A DNA stretch of 64,000 bases. It comes from Escherichia coli (GTDB lineage Bacteria > Pseudomonadota > Gammaproteobacteria > Enterobacterales > Enterobacteriaceae). Of the stretch, positions 40,269 to 49,057 are shown piece after piece (positions within the stretch are counted from its first letter, which is position 1; each line of letters opens with the position of its first letter). The stretch lies in NCBI RefSeq assembly GCF_050920415.1, contig NZ_CP169309.1. The stretch is one strand, 5' to 3'. A model generated the notes under the pieces. The model searched no databases and was not told the DNA's origin. It was given only the letters and a program-made list of their open reading frames with translations. The position numbers and the translations under genes were made by a program.

Positions 40269-40544
40269 CTAAAACAATTGCGGGCGTGTCAGAAAAAAGT
40301 CAAATGAATAAGATGGATTATTTTCATAATCAGTCATAAATTTCATCTTTCTTATTTCATGATCAACGATCGCATAGATCTCATGATTAGATTCATCATA
40401 TCCATAAATGATTTCACCACCAGTACTGGCAGTAGCAGTAGCACTACTACAAATCAACATAATTACAAGTACATATCTAGTCAAGTTGAAAATCCTTAGG
40501 GGCAGATGATGTTTTTTCCAAGATGGATTGAAATTTTTCAACAT
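40269..40544 (-). CDS. Small hypothetical protein, possible orphan exported protein
   Basis: 91 aa ORF in an AT-rich decayed region; internal hydrophobic stretch. Confidence 0.25.
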   Translation of the reverse strand: MLKNFNPSWKKHHLPLRIFNLTRYVLVIMLICSSATATASTGGEIIYGYDESNHEIYAIVDHEIRKMKFMTDYENNPSYSFDFFLTRPQLF

Positions 40545-40854: not shown

Positions 40855-41826
40855 CTAATATTTATATTCCTCCCACTGAGCACCGTATCGATGCTTTAAC
40901 AGTTTAACTTTAATTTCATCATATGTTTTAACTTTACTACCATCAATCTTAAGGCGAATTTTATTCGAGGTGATATCAACATAATTTCTATTTTCCCCAC
41001 CCGCAGGGAAAAAATCAAACATAAAATTAGACATGTTTTGTTCTTTTTTCATGAGAGCTCCATACTCACACATGTCATTTATATTTTGTATGTATGGAGT
41101 GCCCCCCTGACATGATGGATAATGAAAATCAATTATAGTAAAAAGCGATTTATTGACACTCCTCTGAAAGAACCACTTATTATTTACAATACGATAGGTT
41201 AAAGATTTAAATGTATACCAGTGACTTCCTGGAAGAAAAGAGTAAGCTTCATTAAGATTGACAGTAAATACCTTAGTTTCTCCAGAGGAAAGCTTTACCC
41301 ATTCTGATTTTATATCACAATTATCGCCCATACCAAAATAAAGCTCATCATTGGCATCATCCTCAACAAAATCACATATATTGGTTGCGGAAGGACGGAA
41401 TTTCAGATAGAAACCACTTGTGGATATTAAAAAAGAATCCTCACATAAAGGAGAAAAAAAATAAGGCTCCGATGTGTGTGAGGAGATAGGTAATAATCGT
41501 CTATGAATGAAATTTTCGCTACCCCCCAAATTTGTAAAACTTATTTTTGCTAACACACGAGAGTCAATTTGCTTAACGGTTAATCTAACATCAACATCAA
41601 ACATATTACGATTTGGCAATTTTTCCTCGACTCCGTCAGTGTAATGTGATAACTCAAGTATATTGTCCTCAAGAGTCATCGAATTTAATTTTTGTTCGGA
41701 AACATATTGTGCAATAACCTCATCATTGCAGTATCCATGAAATGAAATAAACATTAGCACTGCAATCTTAACTAATCTCAAAATACTTTTCAATATTGTA
41801 TGCATTATTAAAAACCAGCGGGTCAT
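40855..41826 (-). CDS. Putative immunity protein 2 (exported), paralogue of the 43491-44312 gene
   Basis: 323 aa; N-terminal hydrophobic signal-like segment; conserved segments shared with 43491-44312 (FTN...S, FxPG..Y, F.KS..Y+.VN+KWF); directly downstream of the HExxH gene. Confidence 0.6.
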   Translation of the reverse strand: MTRWFLIMHTILKSILRLVKIAVLMFISFHGYCNDEVIAQYVSEQKLNSMTLEDNILELSHYTDGVEEKLPNRNMFDVDVRLTVKQIDSRVLAKISFTNLGGSENFIHRRLLPISSHTSEPYFFSPLCEDSFLISTSGFYLKFRPSATNICDFVEDDANDELYFGMGDNCDIKSEWVKLSSGETKVFTVNLNEAYSFLPGSHWYTFKSLTYRIVNNKWFFQRSVNKSLFTIIDFHYPSCQGGTPYIQNINDMCEYGALMKKEQNMSNFMFDFFPAGGENRNYVDITSNKIRLKIDGSKVKTYDEIKVKLLKHRYGAQWEEYKY

Positions 41827-42582
41827 GTTTTGATTTTAATTCTTTTGCATTGGCAATTTCTCTTTTTTTTCCCAAATCGTTACTGCTTAATCCACCATAA
41901 TACTGTTCTCCATCCCAGATAATAAAAAGGTGAGATAACTCATGGCATAATGTGGAGACTCGAGAGTTTTCTCCCGTTGGATTTTTACATGTGAAATTTT
42001 GTAAGATATCTATAGATATTCTTTCTCGATACTCTAACTTTAAAAGTTCAGCCTTCGACTTATTTTTATACTCACTACTTTGGTATTGGGGCCGATTTAG
42101 ATCTATATGAGTCGTCTGAGCAGCCGGTATACGGGCTGAACCATTGACTAAATTGGTATAATTTTTAAAATTGCCATATATTAGTTGTACATTATCTTGC
42201 GTTCGAGTTTCAATGATCAAGCTATCACAAATCATGATCATTCTGTAAACCCCCTCTTTTATAAAAGTATGTGCGTCAATATTCTTGGTTTGTGGAGTGA
42301 AGTTCCCATTATTATCTGACTTTTGACAAGGAGCATAGTGTTCCATTGTTATAATAGCATCACCTGGTAATCCAAATATATCTTCAAAATTTTTCTGATC
42401 TGCTGGTGTCCATGCTTCCAGATTTTTGCTCTGATATTCAATACTCGCTTTGTTTCTTCCAAAGCAGGCGTTATCATGTTGTAAAATTGATCAGTAACCT
42501 TTGCTTCTTTTTTACATATATTGCCTTTTTGAGTTACCCCTTGTGAACTTCCTTTGTTATTATTCATAAACACCTCCCTCAA
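41768..42582 (-). pseudogene. HExxH-motif putative type VI effector, copy 2, disrupted by a -1 frameshift in an A5 run
   Basis: Two ORFs (42349-42582 and 41768-42346) in different frames both align to the intact paralogue at 44336-45127; HELSH at 41930-41944; frames switch at the T5/A5 run 42423-42427. Confidence 0.7.
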
Positions 42583-42975
42583 TCATATCTATACTTTGAT
42601 GCAATAGCCTGACTTTTATCGTCAGCTCACTGTCAGTGATAAATATTTCCGTATACCCATCCTTATCCGTTTCCCCTCGCGCTTGTGTGCCGTCCTCAAA
42701 AAAGGCAATGTAGCGTGTTTCTGAATACGGTATCCCGTCATCGTCTGTAAAATGAAACTGGAGGGTGTATTTCTCAGGTTCATCCTTATCTTCATTGTCG
42801 TTCCCAGAATCATTTCCATCGCCACCACCGACCCCGCCATTGCCTTGCCCGCCCTCTGCACCACCATCTTTATCACTACCTTCATCCGTCAGTGCCTCCA
42901 GCACGCCCGGTTGCAGTGTCGGTACCGGAGTCCCCGGACTACCCCCACCATTCAGATTTATCTTCGGCCCCCAGG
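42560..42975 (-). pseudogene. Orphan 3' fragment of a vgrG gene (last 140 codons or so)
   Basis: Translation GPKINLNGGGSPGTPVPTLQP...DEPEKYTLQFHFTDDDGIPYSETRYIAFFEDGTQ matches the C-terminal region of the full vgrG at 45117-47522; DNA 42897-42970 matches 45463-45536; no upstream vgrG body. Confidence 0.75.
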
Positions 42976-43335
42976 GAAAGATTACGAAAGCCCGCTCCCC
43001 GCAAGGACTGACGCCAGATACTTTCTGTCCATGGCTGCTTTTCGCATCTTACGTCTTAACCCTGCCTTGAATACCTTATCATTCGTCAAAATATTAATAG
43101 CGATGTGCCGTATCCCTGAAAATAATTCTGCTGCATTTCCTCTTCTTATTTTGCAGTCGTCTTCATTCATTACCACGTCCAGACGCCAGTGCAGCTTATT
43201 CTCCACGTGCCCGTGGTTTCGGATTGCTGTGGCGAACTTCTCTGCGGTTAAATCAGCAGAACTGATATAATATCTGACCGTCATTTCTGGCTCTTTCTTT
43301 TGTTCTGCTATTATGGACCGAAAGGAGACTGCCAC
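42972..43335 (-). mobile_element. H-repeat (ISAs1-family) transposase 3' remnant
   Basis: 117 aa ORF ending ...[28 protein letters not shown], recognised as the C-terminus of H-rpt/ISAs1-type transposases; no N-terminal part present. Confidence 0.65.
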
Positions 43336-43490
43336 GCATAATTTCTTCAGCCCTTTCCATTCAAACGTGAAATCAATAAGTTCATCAGGGACATCGCAAA
43401 CAATATGAAGACGGATTTCTTCTCTGCCGTGACTAAAATGCGAATTATTTAGTACAAAAAAAGCGGCGCACCTTGTTCTTTCCCAGATTC

Positions 43491-44312
43491 CTAATATGGC
43501 AACTTTAAGTTATCGCCGTCTATACTTATAGAAATTTCATCAGGGGTGACGTAAATAGAATTTTTTTCATCCTCAATTGCCCATAACTGATTAATAAAAA
43601 AGTGTTTTTTTTCATCTAATAACAAATTATCACATGTAGTAAAATTATTAATATCAAAAAGATCATCAGCACAATTAATTTTTAAATTTAAAAAATAAAG
43701 AAAAATATTATTGATTGATTTGAGTGTAAACCACTTGTCATTAACAAATTTATAGCCAGATGATTTTATAAAATAATAATTATCTCCTGGTATAAAGGCA
43801 TACATATCATTTAAGGTTATACTCAACAAAAAACTACGACCTGGTTTAATAGTATTCCACCGTTCAGGATTCGTATTAATTTCAAAAGGACATGAACCAC
43901 CTAAGTAGTCCAACGTGATATTCCCAGAGTTGATTCTGAATGGTTTTTTGCATATTGCATCATATTCATCTCCTTTTCCATCTTTTACTTTCATAGGTAG
44001 ATAATATTTAGAAAAAAAATACGTGGTAGAGCTTTTGTTAGTAAAGGTTATGTTAGCAAAAATCCTGTTATTTTTTTTACTCATAGCTAATTGAGCATTG
44101 ACATCCGCTATATAATTTATATGATTACATTTTTTCTTACACTCATCATAATTTTCGATAGGATAAATTAATGGCCTTCCTTTGATATCTCTCTCAAGCC
44201 CAAACCCGTATTTTTTTATTAAAACCATTTCATCTGCAGTCGATTGAAAGGAATAGAAAAATATAATATTTACGATTGTCATTATTATGATTTTTTTTAT
44301 AGCTTGCAGCAT
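43491..44312 (-). CDS. Putative immunity protein 1 (exported)
   Basis: 273 aa, hydrophobic N-terminus ([16 protein letters not shown]); immediately downstream of the HExxH gene; paralogue of 40855-41826. Confidence 0.6.
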
Positions 44313-44335
44313 TAATATATTTCTCGACTTATTAG

Positions 44336-45127
44336 TTAATGGAGAAGTGCTTTTTCTAATTCCGCTATTTTTTTCTTAACTAAATTGCTTAATATTTCAT
44401 CATTAATCGAGTCTATCTCACTTTCAATTAATCTTATTTCAAAATATCTTTCTATGTTATATGCATTCTCAAATATTTGATCTTTTTGTTTAGAGATCAG
44501 TTTAGTTGCAATACGGATATGTTCGTCATATGAAACTTCATCCTCTTTGCACGTTGAATATTTATCAGTAGTTGTATAATCCTGTGACCACATACCACCT
44601 TTTTTATTATCCCTATAATACCACTGAATATGAGACATTTCATGACATAAAGTAGCAACATGAGAATCCTTTCCCGTTACTGGATTTTTTTTGCCATCTC
44701 TATACTCAAATTTTGCGCCTATGTTAATTATATAGGGCATATCCTTACTTGGGCTGACGAATGCTGCAAATTCATTACAACCTGTATAATTTATAAAACT
44801 GCTCATTGTTAAATCATTAGCTATAATCATTAATCTTCTCACACCATCCATCATAAGAAATCTAGCATTCATGCGCCTGCCTGTATTATGTCCATATTTT
44901 CTTATATTAACTTCCTTATTTCCTTTAACACCAAAGATCTTACTGAAATCATATTCCTCCTGTGCTCCCCATCTCAAAAGATCATCTGCTCTTTTTATCA
45001 AAACCAACTTTTGTGCCTTACGAGCCTTATCAATCATTATTTTAAAATGATCAGTTATTTTTTGCTCTTTCACACATTCTTCTGGCTCTGGCTTTGGTTG
45101 TCCAGAAGTTTGATTATTATCGTCCAT
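44336..45127 (-). CDS. HExxH-motif putative zinc-metallopeptidase-like type VI effector, copy 1 (intact)
   Basis: Start ATG 45127 with AAGGA RBS, overlapping the vgrG stop; HEMSH at 44630-44644 (catgaaatgtctcat on the sense strand); no signal peptide; low GC. Confidence 0.7.
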   Translation of the reverse strand: MDDNNQTSGQPKPEPEECVKEQKITDHFKIMIDKARKAQKLVLIKRADDLLRWGAQEEYDFSKIFGVKGNKEVNIRKYGHNTGRRMNARFLMMDGVRRLMIIANDLTMSSFINYTGCNEFAAFVSPSKDMPYIINIGAKFEYRDGKKNPVTGKDSHVATLCHEMSHIQWYYRDNKKGGMWSQDYTTTDKYSTCKEDEVSYDEHIRIATKLISKQKDQIFENAYNIERYFEIRLIESEIDSINDEILSNLVKKKIAELEKALLH

Positions 45128-47522
45128 AGTGTCCTTCCATTGAGAGAAAATCATCATTCGCAAATAGCAACTTCACTTTAATTTCATGTTTGCTAGATAC
45201 AAAAAAACGCTCTGTATACCCCTCTTCATCCGTTTCTCCGCGGGTCTGCGTGCCATCCTCAAAGAAGGCAATGTAGCGGGTTTCTGAATACGGTATCCCG
45301 TCATCGTCTGTAAAATGGAACTGGAGAGTATATTTTTCAGGTTCATCCTCATCGTCACCTCGATCATCACCACCACTTCCGGTCACGCAGTTCCCTCCAG
45401 AGTTTTCATTTTCTTCTCCGGAATCACTGCCATCACCACTCTTCTCATCCCCCAGTGTCTTCAGCACCGCCGGTTGCAGCGTCGGTACAGGCGTCCCCGG
45501 ACTGCCTCCCCCGTTCAGATTTATCTTCGGCCCCACTATATCCACGCCCCCTGAATGGATGACCACAAACGAGCCACCCAACTTCAGGCTTATCCGGCTG
45601 CTGCTCTCCAGCACGATATCCCCGTCCACCTTTATCCCCAGCGCACCACTCACCTTCCTCGCCAGGTCGCCTTTCACCTCCAGGCTGTGTTTTCCCTCCA
45701 CCAGGCTGATGTGGTTTCCTGTCGTTTTGTGCTCCTGCTTCCCTTCCACCGTCACCTTTCGGTCGTTTCTGACGTACAGACCGTCATCGTGGCTGACGTT
45801 CACCCGCCGGTCGTTCGTCACCTTCAGCGTCTGGTCGTTGCGCACCGTGATGCTCCGGTCATGGGCCACCGTGATACTCTGGTCGTGGCCCCCTTCTTTT
45901 CTGGTGCCGACCTCAACCGTCTGCCCCTTCACCACCCTTATCTTCTGGTCGTTACCGATGGTCTCCGTATGGTCATGCTTCACGTCCGTCGTCCGGTCGT
46001 TAAGCACCTCCGTGTCCATGTTCTTCTGCGCGTGGATATACACCTGCTCACTGTCCGTCGCATCCTCGAAACGCAGTTCATTAAAGCCGCTTCCTTTATA
46101 GGTCTTCGAGCGGATGGTCATCTGCGTCCGCGTGCCCGGTAAATCCCCCGGTGAACGGTTATCTTCATGGTAGGTCCGCCCCGTCACAATGGGCTGGTCC
46201 GGGTCTCCGTTCAGAAAGTCCACTATCACTTCCTGACCCACACGCGGTATCGCCAGATTGCCGAACCCCGGTCCCGCCCATGCCTGCGACACCCGTATCC
46301 AGCATGAACTCTCCTCCGTCATCCCGTGATAACGGTCCCAGTGAAACTTCACCCGTACCCGGCCATGCTCGTCGCAGAATATCTCCTCGCCCTTCGGCCC
46401 GGTCACGATGGCACTCTGCGGGCCGTCCACCTTCGGCTTCGGCAGCGGCGCGTGACGCCACGTCCTGTCTGCCGGTATCACCTCAAACTGGTTACTCAGC
46501 GTCGTCCCTTCACCGTGACTGCCGTGCAGCGCCTGCGGCTGTTCTCCCCGCAGTGTGCTTCCCACAACCTGCCATTCCCGGTTCAGCGTATCCGACGGGT
46601 GACCCGACAGGGTAAACCGCGTTCCCGGCCACAGCCGCGCCGTGTTACACACCCCGCTCGCCGTCTCCGCCCCGTTCCGCCACCCTTCCGTCTGGTAACG
46701 CGCAAAATCCTGGCCATGCTGCTCATCCTTGAAACGCCCCGGATAATCAAATATCTCGTACTGCGTTCCCTGCCCGTTCAGGCTCTCCCCGTCATGGCTG
46801 TAGTACCCCGGCCACCCCGGCACTTTAAACGTATAATCCTGCGTCTCCACCGACGCCACGCTTATCTGCGCACGGTAACGAAACTCACTGATGTACTCCG
46901 TCGTTCCCCCGGTCGTCGTGTTCGGGTTAAACGCCAGCGCCCCCATTCCCGTCAGCCCCGCCACGTCATCACACACCGCCAGCTTCTGTTCCGGCCCGTC
47001 CTGACTGCAGCGTTCATAAAAGAAGATACCTTCCTCCGCCCACAGCCGGGTCAGGAACGCCAGGTCGCTCTCCCCGTACTGCACGCAGAACTCCCGCGCC
47101 GGATGGTCTTCATAAAACAGCGGCATCCACGCCGTCACCCCGTTCTCTCTCAGAAGCTGTGCTGATATCGTCCCGATGTCCTGCTGCTGGAAGATACGGA
47201 AGTTCTGCCGTAACCCTGCCCGCCACAGCGGCGGGCTGATGCTCAGGGAATAACGCATCTGCCAGTCGTTGTTCTCACCGAGCTGCACCTCCGTCACGAT
47301 ACCGCTGACGTAACGCTGTGCAGTGTCGCCCTGCCAGACCGTCAGCACCGCGCTTTTCTCCAGAAAATCCTCCGCCGTCAGGTCGGACAGCCCGCTGGCG
47401 ATATCCACATCCAGGATGAACGGTGTGCAGTGGTGCTGGTACAGACGGAAGCTCACCACCGCCGTCGCCATCTCCACGATGTCGTCCACCGACAGCGTGA
47501 AACGTAATCCTTCTGAGGACAT
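45117..47522 (-). CDS. vgrG: Type VI secretion spike protein VgrG with acidic Gly/Asp-rich linker and C-terminal extension domain
   Basis: 801 aa from MSSEGLRFTLSVDD; gp27-like N-terminal region, gp5-like repeats (VKHDHTETIGNDQKIRV...), then GGGSPGTPVPT, acidic linker and a C-terminal domain of about 60 aa. Confidence 0.9.
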   Translation of the reverse strand: MSSEGLRFTLSVDDIVEMATAVVSFRLYQHHCTPFILDVDIASGLSDLTAEDFLEKSAVLTVWQGDTAQRYVSGIVTEVQLGENNDWQMRYSLSISPPLWRAGLRQNFRIFQQQDIGTISAQLLRENGVTAWMPLFYEDHPAREFCVQYGESDLAFLTRLWAEEGIFFYERCSQDGPEQKLAVCDDVAGLTGMGALAFNPNTTTGGTTEYISEFRYRAQISVASVETQDYTFKVPGWPGYYSHDGESLNGQGTQYEIFDYPGRFKDEQHGQDFARYQTEGWRNGAETASGVCNTARLWPGTRFTLSGHPSDTLNREWQVVGSTLRGEQPQALHGSHGEGTTLSNQFEVIPADRTWRHAPLPKPKVDGPQSAIVTGPKGEEIFCDEHGRVRVKFHWDRYHGMTEESSCWIRVSQAWAGPGFGNLAIPRVGQEVIVDFLNGDPDQPIVTGRTYHEDNRSPGDLPGTRTQMTIRSKTYKGSGFNELRFEDATDSEQVYIHAQKNMDTEVLNDRTTDVKHDHTETIGNDQKIRVVKGQTVEVGTRKEGGHDQSITVAHDRSITVRNDQTLKVTNDRRVNVSHDDGLYVRNDRKVTVEGKQEHKTTGNHISLVEGKHSLEVKGDLARKVSGALGIKVDGDIVLESSSRISLKLGGSFVVIHSGGVDIVGPKINLNGGGSPGTPVPTLQPAVLKTLGDEKSGDGSDSGEENENSGGNCVTGSGGDDRGDDEDEPEKYTLQFHFTDDDGIPYSETRYIAFFEDGTQTRGETDEEGYTERFFVSSKHEIKVKLLFANDDFLSMEGHYGR

Positions 47523-47813
47523 ATAAACCCCATAGCTACCGCACTCATGGTGCAAACCCTACAGAATTATAAGAAAGACTTAAGTGAGATATCCGTCAGA
47601 TAGCAACTATTAGGAAAATATTTATATACATTTCATGAATACATTCATTAATACCGAGATGTTTTTGTCTATATAAACAGAGCAAGCTAACGTCCTCACT
47701 CCATGAAAGAAACTACGTAGGGGCCTTTCGGTCCATAACAACTTTTTCCCTGTTATATCCTGACGTTCTGGTCTACTGGTGTAGTCATGCATATTGCAAC
47801 GTTCTACCCATGG

Positions 47814-47900
47814 AAAGATAAATAAAGCCAGCTCTCCGCAAGGACTGAAGCGAGGTGCTTTCTGTCCATAGCTGCTTTTCGCAACTTACTCCTTAACCCA
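47814..47900 (-). mobile_element. Short H-repeat (ISAs1-family) 3' remnant, direct repeat of 42972-43060
   Basis: ctctccgcaaggactgaagcgaggtgctttctgtccatagctgcttttcgcaacttactccttaaccc aligns with the 3' end of the 42972-43335 remnant; encodes ...[19 protein letters not shown]. Confidence 0.55.
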
Positions 47901-48055
47901 ACACTGAATTTCTTATGATTTGTCACAGTATGAACTTTTAATTTCATACATTGCTCTTTAGTCAATAGAAGAAAAATAAGCACCCTCTCCCAAACGACAC
48001 AAATAACCTGCAAATGGGAAATGACTTATTACTTAGAAATTTGCAGAGATATAAA

Positions 48056-48337
48056 TCACGAGATATATCCACCTTTTGAGTTAACAGTTACAGACGTTAT
48101 AACATTATCTTTTATCCAGATATCAACAAAAAAGTCCTTACCACAATAAAGACATTCACAATATCCTTCAGAGATAAAGTTGTCCTTAAGTTTATTTCTG
48201 GTTATATTAATAAGTTTATCGCCAGGATTGTAATGTACTAAATTTCCAGATGGCACAAACATCTCAATTTCACACTGTCCTGACGTTCCACATCGAGGGC
48301 AAACGCACCATGCTTTCAATAAATCATAATTCGACAT
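48056..48337 (-). CDS. Small Cys-rich hypothetical protein (possible zinc ribbon)
   Basis: 93 aa with CPRCG and CECLYCG; AAGGT RBS upstream of the ATG at 48337; AT-rich. Confidence 0.5.
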   Translation of the reverse strand: MSNYDLLKAWCVCPRCGTSGQCEIEMFVPSGNLVHYNPGDKLINITRNKLKDNFISEGYCECLYCGKDFFVDIWIKDNVITSVTVNSKGGYIS

Positions 48338-48387
48338 TATATTACCTTAATTTATTTCACATCAGCATCCCCCCTTGCAAACCACAA

Positions 48388-48744
48388 CTAAACTATTCCC
48401 ATAAAATACAACGAGATAATTTTACTGTTAAACGTACATTCACAAAACTCAGGGGAAGAAAAATGACCATCAGTCAAAAATAAAGATAGTTTGCTTAGTG
48501 CGTAATCAATTGAATCAAGCGACAAGTATAATTTTATTACTAGTGAGTTCTGTATCAGGACATCATTTTCATTGGGGGATTGTAAAAGTAATAAATTTTT
48601 ATACGCTACAGGTGATCTGTTTTCCAGTCTAATAGGTTTGCTTGCTTCCGTCTCCAATAAACTATAAAGAGCACAAACCATCTCATGAGCATCATCTTTC
48701 TCAAAATGTAAATGAAACCCGCCCAGAGATTTATTAGCAATCAT
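48388..48744 (-). CDS. Hypothetical protein
   Basis: 118 aa ORF, weak RBS, AT-rich accessory context. Confidence 0.4.
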   Translation of the reverse strand: MIANKSLGGFHLHFEKDDAHEMVCALYSLLETEASKPIRLENRSPVAYKNLLLLQSPNENDVLIQNSLVIKLYLSLDSIDYALSKLSLFLTDGHFSSPEFCECTFNSKIISLYFMGIV

Positions 48745-48841
48745 AATACGTTTCTAAAGTTGATTTGAAATTTTGCATTTCATGCTCATCAAAAAAATAA
48801 ATATATTTTAACTACAAAGCAAACATCACAGCGCATAGCGG

Positions 48842-49057
48842 TTAATATTCTACCTTAACGACTTTCATTCCTCTTTCAATCATACCATTAATTAATTGAT
48901 AATACTCTTTATCCCCTACATCTACTATTAGAATATGTCCGGTAAGTTCATTGATGAATAAATACTCAGGTTCCTCATCTGTACCAGCATTTGAAATAAC
49001 CCAACCTGGATCAGTACCATCTATAAAAAACTCCCACTCTTTAAAATTAACACTCAT
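48842..49057 (-). CDS. Small acidic hypothetical protein (candidate orphan immunity protein)
   Basis: 71 aa; strong AAGGAGG RBS 6 nt upstream of the ATG. Confidence 0.5.
   Translation of the reverse strand: MSVNFKEWEFFIDGTDPGWVISNAGTDEEPEYLFINELTGHILIVDVGDKEYYQLINGMIERGMKVVKVEY

Follow-up and report, generated by a model that had tools for sequence, protein, structure and literature searches.

A putative aspzincin-type effector–immunity module behind vgrG in an Escherichia coli chromosomal island

The window analysed here is a stretch of 64,000 nucleotides from the Escherichia coli contig NZ_CP169309.1, and our subject is a chromosomal island within it, in which a vgrG gene is directly followed by a gene for a metallopeptidase-like protein and then by one for a predicted exported protein. 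The island lies between ybbP and mnmH, with allA-allS-mnmH on one flank and ybbP-ybbA-tesA on the other, and its guanine-plus-cytosine (GC) content is 30-41% (~39 to 45 kb) compared with 50-58% in the DNA on either side. Read along the minus strand, the genes are vgrG, effector, immunity gene, ISAs1 fragment, vgrG tail remnant, paralogous effector and paralogous immunity gene. We consider it likely that the locus is an orphan T6SS (type VI secretion system) 'vgrG island' carrying an antibacterial effector–immunity pair, and, judged from sequence profiles and a structural model, the effector family is a diverged clade of aspzincins (M35 metallopeptidases). The features of the first module, all on the minus strand, are the following (aa, amino acids; E, expectation value; TTR, transthyretin; PGAP, Prokaryotic Genome Annotation Pipeline):

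45117..47522 (-): vgrG (tssI), 801 aa from the PGAP ATG; matches TIGR03361 (E 9e-177) and Pfam Phage_GPD, Phage_base_V and Gp5_trimer_C
45144..45344 (-): conserved C-terminal TTR-like domain of VgrG, residues ~727-793, profile match to 6SJL; probable effector-loading site
44336..45127 (-): effector, a 263-aa putative toxin without a signal peptide, resembling metallopeptidases of the M35/aspzincin fold
44630..44644 (-): HEMSH (H162, E163, H166), predicted to provide two zinc ligands and the catalytic Glu; invariant in 19/19 family members
44579..44581 (-): D183, candidate third zinc ligand from hhalign, the aspzincin Asp of GGMxxxD (equivalent of GTxD); invariant in 19/19
44435..44467 (-): NAYNIERYFEI block, counterpart of the aspzincin NAD(N/S)FEYY helix, with Tyr223 in place of Asp
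43491..44312 (-): putative immunity protein, 273 aa, predicted exported; 31% identical to E. coli PAR RS15265
44235..44312 (-): predicted signal peptide of the immunity protein, residues 1-26, with a hydrophobic 12-mer (Kyte-Doolittle mean 2.9) and a -3/-1 site (STA/DE)
43713..44105 (-): predicted beta-sandwich core, spanning residues ~70-200 of the immunity protein and containing the invariant C121 and C141

The effector and its VgrG carrier

The open reading frame (ORF) of the effector runs from 45127 to 44336 and encodes 263 aa; the 264 given in the first-pass annotation, a reading of the letters alone, is the number of codons including the stop. Its ATG overlaps the stop of vgrG (tssI in the annotations of strains N96 and 042) by 11 nucleotides and is preceded by a Shine-Dalgarno sequence, GGAAGGA. 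The first-pass annotation had described a protein without a signal peptide after vgrG, carrying HEMSH at 44630-44644, with HELSH at 41930-41944 in a diverged copy and with TLCHExSH and NAYNIE(R/K)YFEI shared by both as a sign of conservation. All of this holds, both HExxH motifs being on the minus strand. In an alignment of 19 family members (33-63% identity), H162, E163, H166, D183 and N221-F229 are invariant, and they align to the HExxH, GTxD and NADxFEYY motifs of about 100 more distant relatives; by this sequence comparison the motifs are not a product of chance.

The relationship to aspzincins emerges most clearly from family profiles. Pfam Aspzincin_M35 is the best match in 14 of the 19 members, at E<=1e-3 in two and at E<=0.1 in 14, and a single-sequence phmmer search with the effector against PDB gave no match. 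The profile of the 19-member family, on the other hand, had as its only relevant matches in PDB the aspzincins AsaP1 (E 2e-6) and GfMEP (E 1.3e-3). An exhaustive profile search through 1.84 billion representatives returned 25 clusters at E<=1e-30 and 256 at E<=1e-3, and the distant relatives that it found carry the canonical aspzincin motifs HExxHF, GGTxDxxYG and NADNFEYY. When the effector family was compared with classical aspzincin toxin domains by hhalign (probability 99.9%, E 5e-31), D183 was paired with the invariant Asp of GTxDxxYG, and Y223 and E226 with the D and E of NADxxE. The AlphaFold model of the effector (predicted local distance difference test score, pLDDT, 88.5; predicted template modelling score, pTM, 0.86) has the aspzincin fold and matches 171 residues of the 293-residue AsaP1 chain. 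Pfam Peptidase_M91 (E 0.013) and SprT-like assignments were dropped, being weaker than Aspzincin_M35 and having no support in the fold search.

The third zinc ligand that defines M35 is the Asp of GTxDxxYG, located downstream of HExxH (PMC7215534). The first-pass annotation had left the fold and any third metal ligand to sensitive profile searches and structure prediction, and these point to an aspzincin fold with D183 as most likely the third ligand. Clade-wide, the Asp of NAD is replaced by Tyr (Tyr223). In GfMEP this Asp helps to bind the substrate Lys in the S1' pocket. If the Asp does bind Lys, its replacement means that the specificity of the window family probably differs from that of Lys-N enzymes.

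A second constant of these loci is found in VgrG itself. Every VgrG preceding a member of the effector family ends in a TTR-like domain of ~65 aa (ExYxxxFxFxDDDGxPYxxTxYIAxFxDGTxxxGxTDxxGYTE), which is kept even when identity between the VgrG bodies is as low as 23-25%, as between the PAR VgrGs and that of the window. The profile of this domain matches the TTR domain of VgrG1 from enteroaggregative E. coli (EAEC; PDB 6SJL residues 781-825, E 1.6e-4) and, weakly, the TTR segment that starts the crystal construct of the VgrG2b C-terminal domain (VgrG2b C-ter). Since the tail is co-inherited with the effector and matches the TTR domain of VgrG1, it probably represents the loading site.

The order vgrG, effector, exported protein (~200-320 aa) recurs in the window and in ten other loci from seven genera, and the effector directly follows vgrG with overlapping stop and start codons both here and in 9/10 of those loci. 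The order is present twice in the metV T6SS cluster of E. coli PAR and behind a PAAR gene in EAEC 042; it is also found in Salmonella and another E. coli (next to tssB and hcp), Citrobacter, Buttiauxella (two loci), Rahnella, Franconibacter and Escherichia sp. Classical aspzincin toxin domains are fused C-terminally to VgrG (909 aa), an Rhs core and PAAR, so all three types of T6SS carrier make use of the aspzincin domain.

The first-pass view of the effector as a member of an uncharacterised family finds no support. The RefSeq/NCBI pipeline already names it 'M35 family metalloendopeptidase' or 'peptidase M35', 'M35_like' is among the catalogued PAAR-associated/T6SS toxins, and a homologous pair has been tested experimentally.

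The exported partner and published precedent

In all loci examined, a protein of the immunity family is encoded 3' of the effector. A signal-like N-terminus, as judged from hydropathy and -3/-1 site analysis, is present in 14/15 immunity proteins, with the cleavage site near residue 26, and in 0/19 effectors, whose N-termini are hydrophilic. The 15 family members share an invariant Cys pair (C121, C141), W152, an LNDxYxFxP segment and a C-terminal IDGDxxKSxY. Word-indexed homologue searches returned almost only close E. coli copies, and further members were taken from diverse effector loci. No match to the family was found in Pfam, NCBIfam (searched with both window immunity proteins) or PDB sequences. 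Effector and immunity divergence are correlated (r = 0.63 over 66 pairs, which lack phylogenetic independence), and the immunity proteins diverge faster.

The AlphaFold model of the immunity protein has a pLDDT of 73.8 overall; its core (~70-200) is mostly at 79-94, dipping to 71-72 at residues 131-150. The 293-residue AsaP1 chain is matched by both the immunity model and the effector model. Because the modelled immunity core is all-beta, its match to AsaP1 would have to lie in the propeptide half of that chain, the half that reportedly inhibits the protease by filling the S1' pocket. This suggests that immunity may be achieved by prodomain-like inhibition.

Experimental precedent comes from the AKO63_2955 protein (M35PAR) of E. 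coli PAR, whose expression from pET22b behind a PelB leader is lethal to E. coli, an effect relieved by AKO63_2956; a C-terminal VgrG fragment, AKO63_2954, binds VgrG and co-precipitates M35PAR (PMC10673891). The authors credit the binding to 'DUF2345' (PMC10673891); the fragment used also holds the TTR-like domain. In the RefSeq version of the PAR metV T6SS cluster, a frameshifted vgrG is followed by RS15260 (262 aa; 30% identical to the window effector, E 3e-32) and RS15265 (308 aa; 31% identical to the immunity protein, E 5e-21), and the conserved TTR-like domain forms the end of the 250-aa C-terminal vgrG ORF. The same cluster holds two consecutive vgrG-effector-immunity cassettes of the effector family, the immunity gene of the first (203 aa) showing an apparent C-terminal truncation relative to the family. 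Another 'M35-peptidase', encoded in an orphan VgrG/PAAR locus of E. coli BCE049, was toxic only with a PelB leader (PMC7904677). Modules of this kind are already annotated, and homologues have been validated experimentally. Literature searches on aspzincins together with the T6SS, or on peptidase M35 with VgrG in E. coli, returned nothing.

The second module and the island around it

The rest of the island includes a second, decaying copy of the module:

42982..43443 (-): ISAs1-family transposase fragment between the two modules; NF033564 E 2e-27; pseudogene in the N96 and 042 annotations
42560..42904 (-): vgrG remnant, 114 aa, with only the linker and the C-terminal TTR-like domain (42563-42790); shares 73% identity with the C-terminal end of the intact VgrG
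41768..42567 (-): paralogous effector (HELSH), a pseudogene in the window owing to an A6 to A5 frameshift near 42425-42430
40855..41826 (-): paralogous immunity protein, 316-323 aa, sharing 23% identity with its counterpart in the first module (E 1e-20) and 31% with PAR RS15265 (E 2e-29)

The stop of the vgrG remnant overlaps the ATG of the paralogous effector by 8 nucleotides. The frameshift noticed in the first-pass annotation is real: compared with N96 and MFDS1022581, the homopolymer contraction from A6 to A5 is all that breaks the gene, and it may reflect recent decay or phase-like slippage, or else an error in sequencing. Intact in N96, the paralogue has 266 aa (WP_001063571.1) and shares 29% identity with the first effector (E 2e-23). 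In N96 the situation is reversed, with the paralogous effector intact and vgrG frameshifted. As had been reported from the letters, each effector is followed by a protein with an N-terminal hydrophobic segment (273 aa in one case, 316-323 aa in the other); in the paralogous partner, too, a plausible -3/-1 site is located near residue 26.

Of 5426 complete E. coli genomes, 508 (about 9%) carry the first pair, counted at a coverage of at least 80% of the 1.8-kb query; the paralogous pair is found in only 3. The effector homologues named so far all belong to Enterobacterales; this breadth was obtained mostly from protein-database matches, a scan of species-representative genomes having contributed only five loci.

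The vgrG modules are bracketed by ISAs1 (H-repeat) transposase fragments at 42982-43443 and 47804-48013. In EAEC 042, the same ISAs1 fragment stands after the effector–immunity pair at another chromosomal site (between yddH and yncG), which suggests co-mobility of the cassette with an ISAs1 element. Upstream of vgrG, at 48056-49057 (-), there are three small low-GC ORFs of 93, 118 and 71 aa, the 93-aa one with two CxxC pairs. None of the three matched NCBIfam, and they may be orphan immunity or accessory genes left over from an earlier cassette. A 91-aa ORF at 40269-40544 (-) has a signal-like segment and 'IIYGYDES', reminiscent of KYGYG near the N-terminus of the immunity family, and may be a remnant of a third immunity gene. 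A tblastn search of the whole window with both families found no third copy of either, so this ORF is not demonstrably such a remnant. A promoter/terminator scan over the AT-rich island was uninformative.

Mechanism, alternatives and comparison with known systems

Taken together, the results make a vgrG-linked antibacterial aspzincin effector–immunity module a well-supported reading of the locus, one in which we place considerable confidence. The first-pass proposal of a zinc-dependent hydrolase toxin acting in the periplasm, with a cognate periplasmic immunity protein, finds support in the predicted fold and motifs, in synteny, and, by analogy, in the toxicity and rescue of homologues that are ~30% identical. 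As for zinc binding, proteolysis, VgrG loading and immunity, we infer the following sequence of events. The effector, probably translationally coupled to vgrG, would be loaded on the spike through the C-terminal TTR-like domain of VgrG and delivered into the periplasm of neighbouring Gram-negative cells. There, with zinc bound by H162, H166 and D183 and with E163 as the catalytic base, it would cleave a peptide bond in the envelope. In sister cells, the Sec-exported and probably disulfide-bonded beta-sandwich protein would bind the toxin within the periplasm and plausibly block its active-site cleft in the manner of an M35 propeptide.

Several observations weigh against this reading. The single-sequence Pfam match of the window effector to Aspzincin_M35 (PF14521) is weak (E 0.0045, 17.9 bits), NCBIfam models do not match it, and its GTxDxxYG counterpart is degenerate (GGMWSQD-YTT, with Tyr and Gly lost). 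The homologue studied experimentally shares only 30% identity with the window effector, whose own toxicity is thus assumed by analogy, and the identity of AKO63_2955/2956 with RS15260/RS15265, though almost certain, is deduced from gene order and the split vgrG. The BCE049 'M35-peptidase' is likened to the window effector by its published description. No catalytic-site mutant has been reported in the literature for any family member, so toxicity might not depend on proteolysis. Finally, T6SS core genes are absent from the 64-kb window, which means that delivery would rely on a T6SS encoded elsewhere.

The published equation of M35PAR with the VgrG2b toxin domain (PMC10673891) raises the question of whether the pair is a member of the Tpe/Tpi family, of which the Pseudomonas aeruginosa VgrG2b C-terminal metallopeptidase and PA0261 are the type examples. 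The parallels are real, as in both cases an HExxH toxin is attached to VgrG or encoded after it, acts in the periplasm and is paired with envelope-located immunity. However, both fold and profile place the window effector among aspzincins, not among thermolysin-like gluzincins; we rejected the membership and regard it as extremely improbable. Nor do we give much credence to a different role for the same fold, namely that the effector is an anti-eukaryotic virulence protease and the downstream protein its chaperone or adaptor, although this is somewhat less remote. M35 proteases are known virulence factors (AsaP1 is a toxin of a fish pathogen, and there are fungal M35 effectors), and pathogenic E. 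coli, EAEC 042 among them, carry the pair. Yet a signal peptide and a conserved Cys pair fit a periplasmic protector rather than a cytoplasmic chaperone, and the downstream protein diverges together with the effector. Moreover, a homologous pair shows periplasmic toxicity and rescue in E. coli itself (PMC10673891), and the island has kept a duplicate of the module, degraded but with an immunity gene of its own, a pattern typical of arms races between bacteria.

Two further questions concern the workings of the antibacterial module rather than its nature. One is whether the toxin is a cell-wall peptidase, attacking the peptidoglycan stem peptide or the Lpp-peptidoglycan link, instead of a protease of periplasmic proteins. 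Within M35, enzymes of the GfMEP/AsaP1 type cut on the N-terminal side of Lys, and both meso-diaminopimelate and the C-terminal Lys of Lpp are Lys-like, which speaks for such a target, as does the toxicity of a homologue only in the periplasm (PMC7904677). The clade-wide Tyr223 in the pocket position of the NAD Asp would likewise fit a specificity other than that of Lys-N enzymes; the assignment of this pocket, however, draws on the GfMEP literature, and wall damage was 'predicted' by the authors of PMC7904677. On balance, we see a wall peptidase as a rather unlikely variant of the module. We know of no target established for any M35-type T6SS toxin.

The other question is the origin of immunity. 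The likeness between the immunity protein and the AsaP1 propeptide may be nothing but generic beta-sandwich similarity, with immunity conferred through an unrelated binding mode, and to this we assign a chance just short of even. A more speculative idea, which we hold only tentatively, is that of a 'split zymogen'. The immunity protein would be a free-standing, Sec-exported descendant or analogue of an M35 prodomain, and the protease, having lost its signal and prodomain, would have become VgrG cargo, its remodelled pocket (NAD Asp to Tyr, with the Tyr of GTxDxxYG lost) cutting a different envelope bond than Lys-N enzymes do. If true, this would provide a concrete evolutionary origin for T6SS immunity proteins and indicate a new envelope target.

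Within the antibacterial reading, the island would illustrate the diversification of interbacterial weapons in E. coli, with one live and one decaying cassette, each behind the same VgrG adaptor domain. The aspzincin placement would correct the published equation with VgrG2b gluzincin toxins, and it names H162, E163, H166 and D183 as candidate catalytic residues. The interest that remains lies in the substrate, the altered specificity pocket, the co-inheritance of TTR domain and effector, and the prodomain-like fold of the immunity protein.

Among known systems, the closest is M35PAR/AKO63_2956, with which the window module shares a homologous effector and immunity protein, the order of vgrG, effector and exported protein, and a TTR-like VgrG tail (54% identical). 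The window effector nevertheless belongs to a different clade. The insert that separates its N-terminal helices from the core is shorter, and it has an extra C-terminal helix (233-263); its VgrG has a different backbone (about 25% identical), and it is encoded in an orphan island rather than in the metV T6SS cluster. The 'M35_like' fusions to VgrG, Rhs and PAAR are homologous to the effector over 161 columns, a stretch that takes in the two N-terminal helices (hhalign E 5e-31). These fusions keep GTxDxxYG and NADNFEYY and are often covalently joined to their carrier, whereas the window family is a clade of stand-alone cargo. GfMEP (1G12), AsaP1 (2X3A) and deuterolysin (1EB6) are Sec-secreted zymogens with a covalent propeptide. 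In contrast, the window protease has neither signal nor prodomain, and an inhibitor-like protein is the separate, exported product of another gene; GTxDxxYG is changed to GGMxxxD and the NAD Asp to Tyr, and identity to these enzymes is only 16-21%.

VgrG2b C-ter/PA0261 and Tpe1/Tpi1 (PMC6899460) resemble the window module in having a VgrG-linked periplasmic HExxH toxin, periplasm-facing immunity and a TTR-like domain before the toxin. VgrG2b C-ter, however, is a thermolysin-like gluzincin with Glu as the third ligand; it matches the window effector in neither sequence nor fold, and there is no relationship between the immunity proteins. For the carrier, the most instructive comparison is with EAEC VgrG1-Tle1 (PDB 6SJL/6SK0), whose VgrG has a C-terminal TTR domain that is detectably homologous to that of the window (E 1.6e-4). 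The cargo of EAEC VgrG1 is a phospholipase; that of the window VgrG would be a metallopeptidase, with binding suggested by the co-immunoprecipitation in PAR.

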